From the NCBI GenBank assembly GCA_003220535.1, contig QHSU01000057.1, positions 20,411 through 84,410 on the forward strand: a stretch of DNA of 64,000 nt, given 5' to 3'. The notes beneath the pieces were generated by a model, which did no database searches, had not been told where the DNA came from, and was given only the letters and a program-made list of their open reading frames with translations. This DNA is from Candidatus Rokuibacteriota bacterium (lineage in GTDB: Bacteria; Methylomirabilota; Methylomirabilia; Rokubacteriales; CSP1-6). Of the stretch, positions 57,827 through 64,000 are shown piece by piece. The translations under genes were made by a program, and so were the position numbers. Position 1 is the stretch's first letter, and each line of letters starts with the position of its first letter.

Positions 57827-59008
57827 ATGGACGATCGTGACGCGATCGTATACGGGCATTGCGAGCCGGCATTCGAGCGGGTCCGCGACTCGCTCGCCGA
57901 AATTCTCGCCTCCGGTTCCGAGGTGGGCGCTGCCCTTGCCGTCTACATCGACAGGCACGCCGTCGTCGACCTGTGGGCAGGCCACACCGACGCCGCGCGG
58001 ACCCGACCGTGGGAGCGAGACACGATCGTCAACCTCTACTCCATCGGCAAGGCTGTCACCGCCGTTTGCGCGTTTCGGCTCGTCGAGGCCGGCCTGCTCG
58101 ATCTCGACGCGCCCGTCGCTCGCTACTGGCCCGAGTTCGCACAGGCGGGCAAGGCGCGGGTCCCGGTGCGCTATCTCCTGACGCATCAGGCGGCGCTGCC
58201 GGCCATCGCCCGCGCGCTGCCATCGGGGGCGTGGAGTTCCTGGGACATCATGACCGAGGCGCTCGCCGCCCAGGCACCGTGGTGGGAGCCGGGCGCCGGC
58301 CACGGGTATCACGTCAACTCACAGGGATTCCTGATCGGCGAGATCGTGCGACGCATCACCGGGAAGACGCTCGGCACCTATCTGCACGAGAGCATCGCCG
58401 GTCCCGCCGGCGTCGATTTCTTCATCGGCTTCGGTCCCGAGCTAGATGGACGCTGCGCCGATTTGCTGCCGCAACAGGCGAGTCCCGAAAGCGAGGAGCT
58501 TCGGCGTCAGCTCAGCGTGAATCCCGAGGGTCTGGACGGCTTGCCTCTGATGCGTGTCAACGCCTATCGCAACCCGCCCGAGGTTTCGGGAACTGGGGTG
58601 GTGAACACGCGCCAGTGGCGCGCGGCGGAGGTGCCGTCGACGAACGGGCACGGCAATGCGCGCGCGGTGGCGCGCCTCTACTCGGCGCTCGCCGGTGACG
58701 GCGAGCTGGACGGCGTCCATGTGCTCGCTCCGGAGACCGTCGCGCGTGCAACCGAGCAACAGGTTTATGGTGACGACATCGTGCTGCAACGCCCTACACG
58801 CTTCGGGCTCGGGTTCCAGCTCGCGATGACCGAGCGCCCGCTCGGTCCCAATCCGCGTGCGTTCGGGCACTTTGGCGCCGGCGGATCGCTCGGGTTCGCC
58901 GATCCCGACGCGCGCGTCGGCTTCGGCTACGCCATGAATCAGGGGCGCGGCGGCTGGCAGCACAAGCACGTTCGTCATCTCATCGATCTGGTCTACGCGG
59001 CGCTCTAA
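57827..59008 (+). CDS. Serine hydrolase of the beta-lactamase family (EstB/class-C-like esterase)
   Basis: The S-x-x-K motif is in YSIGKAVTA. The protein is 393 aa and has no signal peptide. Confidence 0.8.
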   Translation: MDDRDAIVYGHCEPAFERVRDSLAEILASGSEVGAALAVYIDRHAVVDLWAGHTDAARTRPWERDTIVNLYSIGKAVTAVCAFRLVEAGLLDLDAPVARYWPEFAQAGKARVPVRYLLTHQAALPAIARALPSGAWSSWDIMTEALAAQAPWWEPGAGHGYHVNSQGFLIGEIVRRITGKTLGTYLHESIAGPAGVDFFIGFGPELDGRCADLLPQQASPESEELRRQLSVNPEGLDGLPLMRVNAYRNPPEVSGTGVVNTRQWRAAEVPSTNGHGNARAVARLYSALAGDGELDGVHVLAPETVARATEQQVYGDDIVLQRPTRFGLGFQLAMTERPLGPNPRAFGHFGAGGSLGFADPDARVGFGYAMNQGRGGWQHKHVRHLIDLVYAAL

Positions 59009-59023
59009 CGAACAGGAGGCGCG

Positions 59024-59587
59024 ATGAGCGGGACACCGACCTTCGGACGCTATGCCGAGATTCCGATTGACCAGATGACGCCCGGGCAGCGAGACGGATA
59101 CCGCTTCCTGGTTGACGGCCCGCGCGGTCGGCTTCCCGGCCCCTACAAGGTTTGGGTGCACAATCCGAAGCTGGTGCACGCGGCCGCCCCGCTCGGACAG
59201 CATTTCACGCCGGGCCAGTCATCGCTGACGGAGCGCGAGCGAGAGATCGCCGTGATCGTCATGACCAGCAAATGGCATTCGGCCTACCCCACCGCTGCGC
59301 ACGAAAAGCGCGGCAAAGAGGTCGGCCTGTCCGCTCCCGCGGTGGAAGCGATGATCGCGGGCCTTCCGGCCTCGTTCGCGGACCCGCGGGAGCAGGTGGT
59401 CTACGAGGTGGCGATGGCGCTGGCCGGCGGTCAGCTGGTCTCTCAGGGCCTGTATGACCACGCGGTCAAGGCGCTCGGGCATGAGAGCATCACCGACATG
59501 ATCGTCCTGATGGGTTACTACACGGCTGTGTCGCTCACGATGAACTTCTATGCCGTGCCGGCCGGAAGCCCCGGCCTGGCCCGCTGA
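59024..59587 (+). CDS. Carboxymuconolactone-decarboxylase (CMD/AhpD-like) family protein
   Basis: It contains ...LTEREREIAVIVMTSKWHSAYPTAAHEKRGKEVGL..., a typical CMD helical repeat pattern. Confidence 0.65.
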   Translation: MSGTPTFGRYAEIPIDQMTPGQRDGYRFLVDGPRGRLPGPYKVWVHNPKLVHAAAPLGQHFTPGQSSLTEREREIAVIVMTSKWHSAYPTAAHEKRGKEVGLSAPAVEAMIAGLPASFADPREQVVYEVAMALAGGQLVSQGLYDHAVKALGHESITDMIVLMGYYTAVSLTMNFYAVPAGSPGLAR

Positions 59588-59598
59588 GGACCGTCATC

Positions 59599-60411
59599 AT
59601 GGCTCTACTCAAGATCACATCGCTGCATCCCTCGCTCGGCGCCGAGGTCGCCGGCGTCGACCTCAGCAAGCCGGTCGACGCGCCGACCCGGCAGGCGCTG
59701 TCACACGCGCTCGCCGACCATCTGGCGCTCGTCTTTCGCGATCAGGCGTTGACGCCGTCCCAGTATCTCGCCGCCGCTTCGGTGTTCGGCCCGCCGATGG
59801 AGCAGCACTACTCACAGCACAACATGCCGGACTTTCCCCTGATCGGGTTGGTCTGGCACCGGAATGGTCAGCAACCGGCCGAGCAGTGGCACACCGACCA
59901 CACCAACCGCGAGCGCCCGCCGGCCGCCACCATCTTGTATGGAGTGGAGATTCCATCGGCCGGTGGCGGGACCAGCGTCGCGAACATGCGCGCGGCCTAC
60001 GCCGCACTCTCCGAAGACGAACGCCGGCGCCTCGAATCGCTGAAGACGTTCAACAGCCTGGACAGCGGTCGCACCGACACTCGCCAGGAAGACAAGGACA
60101 AGTACGGCAAGCCGATCGAGCATCCGATGGTGCGCACCCATCCGGTGCATGGGTCGAGGGCGGTGTATTTCCACATCTCCAAGGCTCGCATCGACGGCAT
60201 GACACCGGAGGCCAGTCGCGCATACATGGCCGATCTCCTCGACCGGATGATTCGGCCGGAGATCGTCTACCACCATGCCTGGCGCAAAGGTGACGTCCTG
60301 ATCATCGACGACCGCGCGACGATGCACCGGGCGCACGGCGACTACGATCGAAGGCAGAGTCGGGTCCTGTGGCGGATCATCGTCGAAGGTGATCGTCCGC
60401 GGCTGGATTAG
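59599..60411 (+). CDS. TauD/TfdA-family Fe(II)/2-oxoglutarate dioxygenase
   Basis: It contains ...LGAEVAGVDLS..., WHTDH (H-x-D) and ...DDRATMHRA... . Confidence 0.85.
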   Translation: MALLKITSLHPSLGAEVAGVDLSKPVDAPTRQALSHALADHLALVFRDQALTPSQYLAAASVFGPPMEQHYSQHNMPDFPLIGLVWHRNGQQPAEQWHTDHTNRERPPAATILYGVEIPSAGGGTSVANMRAAYAALSEDERRRLESLKTFNSLDSGRTDTRQEDKDKYGKPIEHPMVRTHPVHGSRAVYFHISKARIDGMTPEASRAYMADLLDRMIRPEIVYHHAWRKGDVLIIDDRATMHRAHGDYDRRQSRVLWRIIVEGDRPRLD

Positions 60412-60455: not shown

Positions 60456-62168
60456 CTAGCGGGGCCCGAGGTCGCGCTCGGCGTCGGCGAGCAGGCGCTC
60501 GAAGGATGAGGGCAGCTCGATCGGGCGGCCGACAACGCCGGGGCTGTAGCCCTGCATCCAGTAGCTGTTGGTCGGGTGGCCGCCACCGGCCACGACGATC
60601 ACGAAGTTGTCGGGGCTGGCGGTGATCGGCCACGGGTCCAGGGCGAGGCTCTCGCGCGTCACCTTGCTCGCATCGATCTCGATCCACGCCGGACATCCCG
60701 CGCGACGGAGCTCTGCGACCGGGATCCTCGAATGCTCCCAGAGGAACTCACGGATCGATGCCTTGGTCCACCCGAGCCCGGCCATCGTCTGCGCCACCAC
60801 TCCCGGGATCATCAGGATGCCCGGCGTTCCCCGCTCGTAGCCGGCGAGCCCGGGCATGTTGGGCACGCGCATGAAATCGGCCATACGGTGCATGCCCTGG
60901 AGCGCGTCTTCCTCGGGCGTCTCCTTCTTGGCGCCGCGCCGCCGGATGTTGGTGACCCCATTCGCGAAGGCGAACGAGATCGAGCTTGTGCCCGGCTCGA
61001 AGCCGTGACGCTCGGCGCCGTGCGGCGTCCAGCCGGAGGGTAGATTCGCCTCGTCCTCGGCGAAGACCACGTTCGTGTAGCGCATGCCACCGTAGTTCGC
61101 CATGGTGCCGATGCCGGGCAGGGCGCCGCCGAGGTTCTGCTGCAACAGGCGCAGCGCTCGGCCGATGCTCGCGCCCGCCGGCCGCTGCGGATCCGGGCCA
61201 AGGCAGCCGAAGCCGGCATTCAGCCGGATCTGGGCGCCGATCGGCCCGTTGACGATCACCACCGGAAAGGCGCTGCCCGACGCGGCCTGCAGCTGCTCGC
61301 TCCCGGACTCGGCGTCGAGGAAGGCGCTCACGGCAGCCACGAGCACCGGCACGTACTCGGGCCGCCCGCCCGCCATCGCCAGCGCGATGGCGCATGACTC
61401 GACCGTGGTCACGCCGCCCCGCGGCGGAAAAGTGCCGAGCCCGCGTCCGCGCGGCTGCGCGGCGCCGCCCAGGATCCAGTCCACTCGTTCCCGCGTCGGG
61501 GGCCAGAGCGGCAGGCCATCACCCCAGCGGTTGGCGAGCATCAGATGATTCGCGCGGGCGAAGGCGTCCTCGACACTCGTGCCCTGCACGTGGACCATCG
61601 GCGCCCCGCTCACGCCATCGCCGGCAAAGGCCGAGCGCCACCGCGTCAGGCCGTCGTAGAACTCACGCTTGCGCACCTCCATTGGAGAGATGTCGCTGCC
61701 CGGCAGGAACATCTCGATGGGAAAGGTGACCATCGCCGCGTCCGGCGCCAACCCGACTCCAGCGACGGCGTTCGTCATGACCCCCACGAAATCCTCGCGG
61801 GTCAGCGTGACCGTCGGGATTCCCCGTGCTTCGAGCCTAGCGGCCGCCCGGCCGCATGCAGTGGCGCAGGACCCTCAGGCAGCGTTGCCGATGATGACGG
61901 CGTCGACCCCGCTCTCCTTGACGAGCGCCGCCGTCTCCTCCGAGCCGATCACGGCGTTGCCCTGGGGGAAAGCGTCGATCGGCAGCACCTCGATGCCCGG
62001 GAAGTCCACCTCGAGCAGGGCCTTCAGACGGGGGAGCATGCGGTAGGCCTGCCACTGCTCGTTGCTGACGAAGCCGACGCGCTTGCCCTCGAGGGTGGCG
62101 ATGCGCGGCGCGTGCGGCTGCTTCACTTCGATGGCGCCGGACGGGTCGTGGAACTCGAGGTTCACCAT
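60456..62168 (-). CDS. Candidate selenoprotein: UGSC-family redox domain (Sec at codon 98, TGA 61877-61875) fused in-frame to an uncharacterised module of about 370 aa
   Basis: ORFs 61875..62330 and 60456..61787 share one frame and are separated only by this TGA. The context is ...DAVIIGNAA-TGA-GSCATACGRAAARLEARGIPTV.... AGGAGG lies 7 nt before ATG 62168, and a hairpin lies 20 nt after the TGA. Confidence 0.55.
61840..61855 (-). promoter_or_regulatory. SECIS-candidate stem-loop (6-bp GC stem, GGGC loop) downstream of the in-frame TGA
   Basis: The mRNA sense reads GCGGCC-GGGC-GGCCGC. The loop begins 25 nt after the UGA and starts with G. Confidence 0.35.
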
Positions 62169-62223
62169 GAGATGCCCTCCTGGAAACGTCATCTTACCCG
62201 CGCTGGCCGCGCGACGCGTCAGA

Positions 62224-63453
62224 TCATCCATCGGCGACGCCCTTCGCGGGCCGGGTCGAGGCGGCCGTCGATTGGACGCGAGCCGGGCGCTGATGGGGCA
62301 AGCCGAGCGCCACGAGAATGCCCAGGGCATTGCCGCCGGCGGCGATCAGGATCGCGGATCCGTAGCCCTGAGTCAGGTCGAACAGGTAGCCGGCGGTGAT
62401 TGGCAGGATGATGGCGGCGGCGCACCATGCGAGGTAGATCCGGCTGGCAATCCGGCCGTACAGCGCACGTCTCCAGTACACGGCCACCGCGGCCGCGGTG
62501 ACGCCGGAGATCACCCCGTAGCCCATCCCCACGAGCGCCAGTGCCAGGACCGATACGCCGGGGCCGGGCCACAGCGTCAGCGCCACGTTGCCGGCGAGTG
62601 CGACGGCGTGCGCGCCGGCCGCGACCGCAGGAATGGTCAGCCAGTCGACCATCCACCCGCCTCCCAAGCGTGCGACGGCGATCGTGCCGGCGATGAAGGT
62701 CGTGCCGTAGACGGCGAGCGAGGTCGCGCCACCATAGGCCGCGATGATGCCGGCGGCCTGACTGAGCACCATCAGCCCAGCGGACGCCGCCAGGAAGAAG
62801 ACGATCCACAGTCGCCAGAACACGGGCCGGCGTCGTTCTCCCTCGTCAGGCGCGATGCTCGCGGCGGCCGCCGCCAGCGTGACGCCGGATTGCGCGATCA
62901 GCCACGCGCTGATCGAGCCGGTGACGGCCAGGACCGTGGCGAGGCCCCCGAGCGTGGCGCGCACGCCGAACTCGCCGATGGACCACCCGAAGAGGGGCGC
63001 GGCGATCATCGCGCCGGCCGGATACAGCCCGACGATGTAGCCGTTCACCAGACCGTGGCGCCTCGTCACGGCGAGGTTCACCGTTTGCTGCGCGAGGATG
63101 TAAGCAGCGCCACCACCGGCGCCGAACAACACTCCGTACCCCACGGCCAGCTGGGCGAGACCGCCCGCCGTCGCGGCAACCGCGATGCCCAGCGCGCTCG
63201 CGGCCGCACAGGCCAGCACCAGTGCCGTGGTCGACGCGAGGCCGAAGAAGTGAGGCGCCAGAAGCATGCCGGCGCCGAATCCGCCGGATGCAAGGGCGAA
63301 GACGAGCGCGAGATCGGCCCGGCTCAGCCCGAGCAGCGCTTCCAGCGGCTTCAAGAACACGCTGAACGCGTAGAGCGACCCGAGCGGGGCATTGAGCACG
63401 GTGGCGGCCGCGACGGCGCGCCACGCGCTCGGCCTGACGTCAGGCTCGTTCAC
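62224..63453 (-). CDS. MFS transporter (oxalate/formate-antiporter-like subfamily)
   Basis: 409 aa with 12 TM segments. The N-terminus ...NAPLGSLYAFSVFLKPLE... is typical of OFA-type MFS. It has a GTG start. The stop lies 55 nt upstream of the UGSC gene start. Confidence 0.8.
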   Translation of the reverse strand: MNEPDVRPSAWRAVAAATVLNAPLGSLYAFSVFLKPLEALLGLSRADLALVFALASGGFGAGMLLAPHFFGLASTTALVLACAAASALGIAVAATAGGLAQLAVGYGVLFGAGGGAAYILAQQTVNLAVTRRHGLVNGYIVGLYPAGAMIAAPLFGWSIGEFGVRATLGGLATVLAVTGSISAWLIAQSGVTLAAAAASIAPDEGERRRPVFWRLWIVFFLAASAGLMVLSQAAGIIAAYGGATSLAVYGTTFIAGTIAVARLGGGWMVDWLTIPAVAAGAHAVALAGNVALTLWPGPGVSVLALALVGMGYGVISGVTAAAVAVYWRRALYGRIASRIYLAWCAAAIILPITAGYLFDLTQGYGSAILIAAGGNALGILVALGLPHQRPARVQSTAASTRPAKGVADG

Positions 63454-63516: not shown

Positions 63517-64000
63517 CTACGGCAGGAGCGCTGCGACGCGGATTCGCGCTCGGGGCGCGGCCAGCGGCGTGACGATGGCGTTGCGACGGAGCATACGGAC
63601 CGAGTCGTACTTCCAGTCGCCGAGCCCCGATGGGGCGCGCACCGGCTCCCGGTAGACCTCCAGCACTTCGTCGATCAGGTTGACCACCCAGTAGTCGGCG
63701 ATCCCCGCTCGCGCGTAGAGGCCGCCCTTGCGCAGCCGGTCGAGGGCGAGCGACGTGTCGGCGACCTCGACGACCAGCACGGGCCGAGAGGGATGGGCCG
63801 CGAGGTAGTCTCGCAGTCGGCCCGGCACGACGACGACATCGGGCTCGGGCTCCGATTGCTCGTCGAGCGCGATCGGCTTTTCTTCGCGTATGTGGTACGC
63901 GCTGCCGAACGCCTTGTCGAGTGCGGCGCGCACGAGGCCGACCACCGTGGCGTGGCGCTCTGCTTGGGGCTCTCGGGCGACGAGCAAGCCGTCGAGCAGC
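63517..64000 (-). CDS. Uma2-family (DUF820) PD-(D/E)XK endonuclease-like protein, N-terminus beyond the window end
   Basis: It contains ...EPEPDVVVVPG... and ...PVLVVEVADTSLALDRLRKGGLYARAGIADYWVVNL... . The frame is still open at base 64000. Confidence 0.75.
   Translation of the reverse strand, partial: LLDGLLVAREPQAERHATVVGLVRAALDKAFGSAYHIREEKPIALDEQSEPEPDVVVVPGRLRDYLAAHPSRPVLVVEVADTSLALDRLRKGGLYARAGIADYWVVNLIDEVLEVYREPVRAPSGLGDWKYDSVRMLRRNAIVTPLAAPRARIRVAALLP

Follow-up and report, generated by a model that had tools for sequence, protein, structure and literature searches.

Which protein is encoded where a reading frame for a UGSC selenoprotein domain runs across a TGA codon into a second module that belongs to no named family, and what could such a protein do? 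The question is raised by a minus-strand gene in a 64,000-nucleotide stretch of a Candidatus Rokuibacteriota bacterium genome (contig QHSU01000057.1, positions 20,411 to 84,410; this whole stretch is called the window below). UGSC-containing proteins, the family of Zhang and Gladyshev, have been known from metagenomes since 2005-2008, and a 'UGSC/Unknown_1 fusion' was reported from ocean metagenomes in 2008, when a thioredoxin-like fold was also suggested (PMC2398784); Unknown_1 may correspond to the second module of our gene, here named X. Reviews of 2022 and 2026 still describe the function of UGSC proteins as unknown and mention no partner. We describe the gene of the window as a UGSC-X fusion read through a selenocysteine (Sec, U) codon. 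The best overall explanation of its product, to which we assign a probability of roughly 55%, is a single-chain Sec-dependent selenoenzyme, in which X forms the body and the Sec at residue 98 is catalytic.

Selenocysteine at the in-frame UGA

A 151-codon open reading frame (ORF) on the minus strand stops at TGA (61877-61875), and a 443-codon ORF continues in the same frame. With the TGA read as Sec, the frame from the ATG at 62168 to the stop codon at 60458-60456 is open over 570 codons and contains this single TGA, which encodes residue 98 in the motif NAA-U-GSC (...VDAVIIGNAA-U-GSCATACGRAAARLEARGIPTV; in shorter extracts ...IIGNAA-U-GSCATACGRAAA and ...IGNAA-U-GSCATACGRAAARLEARGIP). The ATG is preceded, at a distance of 7 nt, by the Shine-Dalgarno sequence GGAGG. 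The initial annotation, made from the letters of the window, had described a single frame joining a UGSC domain to a large second module, and it had described and placed both this gene and the major facilitator superfamily (MFS) gene upstream; the frame, the domain scan and the gap between the genes agree with that description, and all 80 orthologous loci identified here keep the frame. We regard this Sec-containing fusion anatomy of the 570-residue gene as close to certain.

The 80 loci with full-length orthologues (62-95% identity, spanning residues 1-570) were obtained by scanning one genome per species; their database labels are those of Rokubacteria/Methylomirabilota, Betaproteobacteria/Burkholderiales, Syntrophales and Desulfobacter metagenome-assembled genomes (MAGs). 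The codon for residue 98 is TGA in every one of them, within the motif U-G-[S/A/T]-C. Full-length homologues in the Cys form were also found as unbroken 575-aa proteins with a TGC codon at this place (P0123, NAA-C-GSC, and P0127, NAA-C-GAC). Mean identity to the window sequence reaches its maximum for the whole protein, 88%, in the 32 residues that follow the UGA, compared with 79% in the N-terminal half of the UGSC domain and 76% in X. Genes for tRNA-Sec, SelA, SelB and SelD are present in the same genome. The selD gene (C1:110596-111537; C numbers are our contig labels) has an in-frame TGA of its own, which makes its product a Sec-type SelD.

A hairpin lies immediately downstream, its stem beginning 19 nt and its G-rich loop 25 nt past the UGA. 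It is present in all orthologues, including variants such as GCGGC-CGUGCA-GCCGC in Proteobacteria and forms with a GGUC loop in some Rokubacteria. Since the region after the UGA folded no better than shuffled sequences (z 0.39), and an Rfam scan round the UGA matched no Sec insertion sequence (SECIS) family, selection at synonymous sites was examined, using 103 fourfold-degenerate sites at invariant Gly, Ala, Pro, Thr and Val columns of 74 orthologues. The median third-position entropy of these sites was 1.17 bits; the sole site below 0.1 was Gly106, which lies within the stem and is encoded by GGC in 74 of 74 sequences. Two further stem codons behave similarly: Cys105 is TGC in all 74 orthologues, and Ala109 is GCC in 68, the other six having GUC with a G-U pair retained. 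No compensatory covariation was detected in the hairpin, because the stem is nearly invariant, and with an unremarkable minimum-energy fold the evidence for the hairpin rests on conservation and not on energy. Such frozen synonymous sites are the signature of an RNA structure overlying the coding sequence, and UGA-98 is predicted to be read as Sec with the aid of the hairpin just downstream.

UGSC and X as obligate partners

All seven UGSC genes of the genome contain one TGA each and are either fused to X or adjoin it. Four are fusions with UGSC in front of X (the window gene, C137:12678, C108 and the frameshifted copy on C39), and three form pairs of adjacent genes, with X preceding UGSC on C1 and C139 and following it at C137:9424. 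Among 61 sampled genomes of the phylum, the same 45 possess both UGSC and X and the same 16 possess neither. In five genomes of other lineages the numbers of UGSC and X copies are 18/20, 1/1, 1/1, 7/6 and 18/22, with the listed positions adjacent, and the genomes of Syntrophales and Desulfobacter have no copy besides the window-type fusion. Judged by this distribution, UGSC and X are obligate partners, fused or neighbouring. The outcome that had been named beforehand as contrary to a fusion, an ordinary stop and restart between the two parts in homologous loci with no co-occurrence, is not what the genomes show, since UGSC and X strictly co-occur, fused or adjacent, wherever examined.

The copy number varies widely, with 2-12 copies per genome in the family of the window bacterium (phylum sample G001-G060) and 18-22 in two proteobacterial MAGs (G061 and G065). 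Every UGSC copy among those listed has one TGA, and genera without UGSC are also without X. The fused copy at C39:71195-72726 changes frame near 72124, inside X, and is either a pseudogene or the result of an assembly error. An orphan X copy with the motif MAGC (C44:41875-43041) has no adjoining UGSC gene. In two betaproteobacterial loci (L060:1450 and L065:3436) a canonical UGSC gene (GSGD-U-GSC) was found 1.7-3.8 kb upstream of the fusion gene.

Module X, an uncatalogued protein family

The C-terminal module of about 380 residues, which the initial annotation could not place in any named family, is indeed absent from the collections searched. Pfam gave no match to X at E<=10 and none to four of its paralogues at E<=1; in a Pfam scan of 100 representatives of the X family no domain was placed on X; NCBIfam had no match on X; and no relative was found in PDB either by sequence or by profile. 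Structure prediction of the C-terminal part likewise led to no known family. An AlphaFold2 model of X based on 63 sequences was confidently folded as an alpha/beta domain (predicted local distance difference test score, pLDDT, 81.9; predicted template modelling score, pTM, 0.86), and a Foldseek search with it returned nothing at E<=1e-3 in PDB or BFVD. The best match, class I fumarase, lay above this threshold (E 0.012, template modelling score 0.22), and weak matches to the Toblerone fold and to IRG1 were dismissed as noise.

The family itself is large. It comprises 3339 clusters at 50% identity (E<=1e-3), and a profile built from the X copies of the genome matched 7464 of the 8000 candidates scored. 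The source name was "hypothetical protein" in every member seen. Among the members examined no Pfam domain other than UGSC stood beside X, save in one representative (a member of alignment A4) fused to a ferredoxin-thioredoxin-reductase catalytic domain (PF02943). Another protein, P0172, lacks UGSC and carries X duplicated in tandem (717 aa).

Invariant or nearly invariant residues throughout the family are D217-G-L-P..P-P-T225, M-A-G267, P270-E-Y, N307-G-P, I-G-R337-A..R340, E371.E373...P377..W380 and A527-G-G. They are found mostly in loops after strands, and together they look like an active site. A Cys that is nearly universal in the family, in the context AVMAG-C-RPEY (114 of 116 profile hits), has been replaced in the clade of the window gene by Gly (LAMAG-G-RPEY in 117 of 120 close orthologues) and in a sister clade by Ala. 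Another Cys of X, C259, is nearly invariant among the orthologues (73/74).

The UGSC domain and its relation to GrdB and PrdB

The Pfam UGSC model (PF24696) matches residues 7-151 with 83.7 bits against a cut-off of 25, in agreement with the domain assignment of the initial annotation; the equivalog cut-off of NCBIfam NF041046 is missed (52.2 bits vs 125). Within the genome, five canonical copies score 150-190 bits with the Pfam model, whereas about 80 bits are reached by the window copy and by a second fused one. By these scores the N-terminal domain is assigned to a divergent UGSC subfamily. Three residues, U98, C101 and C105, are invariant among the orthologues and form the motif U-x-x-C-x-x-x-C on one helix.

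In the AlphaFold2 model of the full-length protein (pLDDT 87.5, pTM 0.87) the N-terminal domain is an alpha/beta structure with parallel strands, and Sec98 lies where strand 90-96 ends and helix 99-114 begins. Foldseek matches of this model were weak and generic, and came via the UGSC domain to B12-binding and Rossmann-type domains. No thioredoxin-type Pfam family matched the fusion gene or its UGSC domain in a domain scan to E<=10. The thioredoxin-like fold suggested for UGSC in 2008 is therefore unsupported by the model, the predicted fold being Rossmann/flavodoxin-like.

A more specific relationship emerged from profile alignment. When the seven UGSC domains were compared by hhalign with the three GRDB proteins of the genome, the alignment covered 84 columns with Sec on Sec (probability 87.6, E 3.5e-6), whereas the negative control, UGSC against GrdE-like proteins of the same genome, gave E 0.3. 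Two GRDB genes, read through a UGA of their own (...AVILTST-U-GTSTRCGAAIARELERAGLPTV and ...LLVAT-U-GTCNRCGATIAKEIERVGIPV, the latter in a shorter extract ...LLVAT-U-GTCNRCGATIAKEIERVGIP), visibly resemble the segment ...IGNAA-U-GSCATACGRAAARLEARGIPTV of the window gene. This alignment and its control identify the Sec-bearing half of UGSC as a homologue of the Sec segment in the reductase selenoproteins GrdB/PrdB. By the Pfam GRDB model (PF07355) the fusion gene is not a member of that family: a genome search at E<=10 found three other genes, and a Pfam scan of the UGSC domain at E<=10 gave no GRDB match. A weak match to Pfam Gly_reductase (E 0.039) was rejected as a short local similarity, since the same stretch appears in the GrdE-like control.

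The genome, itself a Rokubacteria-like one from soil, also encodes apparent selenoproteins of the glycine/betaine-reductase type. Two pairs of GrdE-like (PF09338) and GRDB (PF07355) genes are situated at C111:98162-100476 and C111:111790-114350, that is, on the contig of the window, 14-30 kb past its end, and in both GRDB genes the frame continues past a TGA (…TST-U-GTSTRC… and …VAT-U-GTCNRC…). A third, shorter GRDB-like Sec gene is present at C46:35142. The GrdE-like genes adjoin only the true GRDB genes.

Proposed function and mechanism

Most likely the fusion protein works as a Sec-dependent reductase contained in a single chain, with a small organic acid, taken up from outside, as its substrate. 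X would provide the substrate-binding and catalytic body, and the UGSC domain would dock on it, setting Sec98 in a conserved polar pocket formed by D217, T225, N307, R337, R340, E371, E373 and W380. The pTM of 0.87 for the two-domain chain argues indirectly for a fixed interface between the domains. The selenolate of Sec98 could then attack a small organic acid or a derivative of an amino acid, imported into the cell, and cleave a bond in it reductively, as GrdB and PrdB do. Resolution of the adduct by Cys101 would yield a selenenyl-sulfide, and Cys105 or an external dithiol, e.g., thioredoxin, would regenerate the enzyme. Since the Cys of X has become Gly in the clade of the window gene (MAGG), and since an extra invariant Cys105 is found on the Sec helix, all redox residues may in this clade have moved onto the Sec domain. 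The substrate class is suggested by the neighbours, which from one paralogue to the next are different transporters and catabolic enzymes. The reductase mechanism as such we would put at slightly less than an even bet.

Several observations weigh against this reading. The similarity to GrdB spans only 84 columns, and the GRDB model of Pfam misses the gene. By hhalign, X is unrelated to GrdE/PrdA (probability 0.16 for the GrdE-like proteins) and to the N-terminal body of GrdB, and UGSC-X gives no sign of a pyruvoyl group. No thioredoxin or thioredoxin-reductase gene adjoins the UGSC-X units of the genome. Finally, with the family Cys lost from X, no mechanism that depends on this residue can hold generally.

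The initial annotation had proposed that the tethered U/CxxC domain serves as an internal redox shuttle for the second module. A U-x-x-C domain fused to an unnamed module is what the gene encodes; the role of a mere shuttle is the less likely one, because the Sec segment has its homologue in GrdB/PrdB and the domain is not thioredoxin-like, so that Sec more probably acts as a reductase's catalytic selenol. In its fullest form the alternative would make UGSC a dedicated, thioredoxin-like reductant that keeps X reduced or recycles it, X being the true enzyme, for example an isomerase, hydrolase or lyase, with selenium not directly involved. Such an arrangement would account for the near-invariant Cys of X in most of the family, which could form a Se-S bond with Sec, for the predicted position of U-x-x-C at the N-terminal end of a helix, where redox proteins have it too, and for the one X relative fused to a ferredoxin-thioredoxin-reductase domain. 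It is weakened by the loss of that very Cys in the clade of the window gene and in a sister clade, where Sec and the fusion are nevertheless strictly kept, and by a Sec segment whose homologues are the catalytic GrdB/PrdB and not thioredoxin. We consider it unlikely, and prefer the single-chain enzyme with a catalytic Sec98.

A broader proposal is offered tentatively, with the odds leaning somewhat against it: UGSC and X may constitute an unrecognised and very widespread class of Sec-dependent small-molecule reductases, in which a selenol of the GrdB/PrdB type would be joined to a catalytic fold without any solved relative and which would include many substrate-specific paralogues, the clade of the window gene representing a self-contained single-chain form with all redox cysteines on the Sec domain.

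The MFS gene and the genomic neighbourhood

As the initial annotation stated, 55 nt (exactly) separate the fusion gene from the end of an MFS gene (63453..62224) upstream on the same minus strand, and the two are probably co-transcribed in the window. The description of the MFS protein as an OFA-type transporter was only loosely right. Membership in the MFS is supported, by the generic MFS_1 model only; the OFA subfamily is not, with 30 bits against a cut-off of 375 for TIGR00890 and 18.8 against 335 for TIGR04259, and the best NCBIfam model, that of the lactate MFS transporter SfMCT, is also below its cut-off (129.6 bits vs 320).

From this arrangement the initial annotation considered a two-gene unit likely; in its fullest form such a unit would be conserved and dedicated to uptake and conversion. 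Besides the common strand and the short gap, with no terminator-like site in it, such a unit is suggested by the same layout in three close relatives (L013, L016 and L047), by an MFS gene about 4 kb upstream in another (L018), and by a second X/UGSC pair of the genome, which is also located downstream of an MFS gene. Across the orthologues the association does not hold. The MFS gene stands beside the fusion gene in only 4 of the 80 loci, all from close Rokubacteria relatives; the proteobacterial orthologues adjoin Bug/TctC binding proteins instead; and the MFS protein is below threshold for every named subfamily. We therefore rejected the MFS gene as a conserved partner, and find a general two-gene unit quite improbable. 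For the single-chain selenoenzyme that we prefer, the upstream transporter would probably supply the substrate in the lineage of the window only.

The sole recurrent neighbour of the orthologues is a gene for a Bug/TctC-type solute-binding protein, found in 32 of the 80 loci, at a distance of 400 bp or less in 18, and often co-oriented. Genes of this type are very numerous in Burkholderiales, so the association is only suggestive. The paralogues have other surroundings: on C1, another MFS gene that immediately precedes X-UGSC; an SBP_bac_5/ABC system and an amidohydrolase on C137; LigB and a luciferase-like oxidoreductase on C139; an amine oxidase, DUF362 and Amidohydro_2 on C108; EamA and a 3-hydroxyisobutyrate-dehydrogenase-like gene on C39. 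This pattern fits paralogous cytoplasmic enzymes that would act on different imported small molecules.

On the other side of the fusion gene, a convergent gene for a TauD-family dioxygenase (59599-60411, plus strand) ends 45 nt from its stop codon; a TauD gene is downstream again in only about 5 of the 80 orthologous loci. The other flanking genes encode an AhpD-like peroxidase-related protein (59024-59587, plus strand), a beta-lactamase-family serine hydrolase (57827-59008, plus strand) and, beyond the MFS gene, a Uma2 endonuclease (63517-63987, minus strand).

Gene coordinates and database annotation

The features of the locus are collected in Table 1.

Table 1. Features of the UGSC-X locus (coordinates within the window).
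Feature	Coordinates	Strand	Remarks
UGSC-X fusion selenoprotein gene, complete	60456..62168	-	570 codons + stop; translation with TGA = U
UGSC domain, residues 1-177	61638..62168	-	Pfam PF24696; predicted Rossmann/flavodoxin-like alpha/beta fold
UGA Sec codon, residue 98, start of U-G-S-C-A-T-A-C	61875..61877	-	TGA in 80/80 orthologous loci
SECIS-like hairpin GCGGCC-GGGC-GGCCGC	61840..61855	-	Overlaps codons Cys105-Ala110; supported by conservation
Inter-domain linker, residues 178-190	61599..61637	-	Conservation 36% (protein minimum); pLDDT dips to 63
Module X, residues 191-570	60459..61598	-	Uncatalogued alpha/beta domain, constant partner of UGSC
Spacer of 55 nt between MFS stop and fusion-gene start	62169..62223	-	GGAGG at 62180-62176; without terminator-like site
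MFS transporter gene, 409 aa	62224..63453	-	Pfam MFS_1, 43.8 bits

The databases present this gene differently, all of the about 120 closest entries being called as proteins of about 440 aa that begin after the TGA. Taken at face value, such entries would make the TGA an ordinary stop separating two genes, or the halves of a broken gene, that is, a fragment of 97 aa and a protein of 440 aa whose start is an internal ATG (M131) or a GTG three codons earlier (61787); this is effectively refuted, as the 32 codons between the TGA and the called start are the best-conserved part of the gene (88%), the TGA is retained in 80 of 80 loci across phyla, the Cys homologues run through unbroken, the SECIS-type hairpin is under purifying selection at synonymous sites, and the genome has complete Sec machinery. 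The truncated entries represent instead a systematic annotation error: in practically all the database entries seen, gene callers have cut the reading frame at the UGA.

Comparison with known selenoproteins

Few predicted selenoproteins are as abundant in aquatic and soil metagenomes as the UGSC proteins, and the question of their function, now about 20 years old, becomes testable. Three handles on it are provided by this analysis: a constant, uncatalogued partner of 350-380 residues, a Sec segment homologous to that of GrdB/PrdB, and a natural single-chain version of the pair. The last lends itself well to experiment, since expression, crystallisation and assays would need only one gene. Ligand screening of the Bug/TctC proteins and transporters beside the orthologues could reveal the substrate. 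The strict pairing of UGSC and X, the homology to GrdB, the fold other than thioredoxin and the Cys-to-Gly clade were not found in the literature searched.

Within the UGSC selenoprotein family, the window gene has the U-G-S-C motif with UGA-encoded Sec, passes the family model and is fused to a domain without assigned function, as was the protein reported in 2008. It differs from the family in falling below the NF041046 cut-off, in the extra invariant Cys of its U-x-x-C-x-x-x-C motif, and in a predicted fold that is Rossmann/flavodoxin-like and not, as suggested at that time, thioredoxin-like. From the canonical split X and UGSC pairs, with which it shares both domains and the same X motifs (DGLP..PPT, NGP, IGRA.R, E.E..P..W and AGG), it is distinguished by fusion in the order UGSC then X, by Gly in place of the Cys of MAGC, and by a far more divergent UGSC domain.

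The likeness to GrdB, GrdF, GrdH and PrdB concerns the Sec segment, which in both cases consists of a strand, U-G-x-C and a helix with ...E..GIP, and the two-part layout of a Sec module and a larger partner, GrdE/PrdA there and X here. Beyond this the systems diverge: the UGSC-X gene is not matched by the GRDB model, and X is unrelated to the pyruvoyl partner GrdE/PrdA (PF09338). Stickland reductases are used by amino-acid-fermenting anaerobes, whereas the hosts of UGSC-X are apparently, by the labels of the MAGs, soil, groundwater and lake bacteria; the genome studied here carries true GrdE/GrdB pairs as well, apart from the UGSC-X gene.

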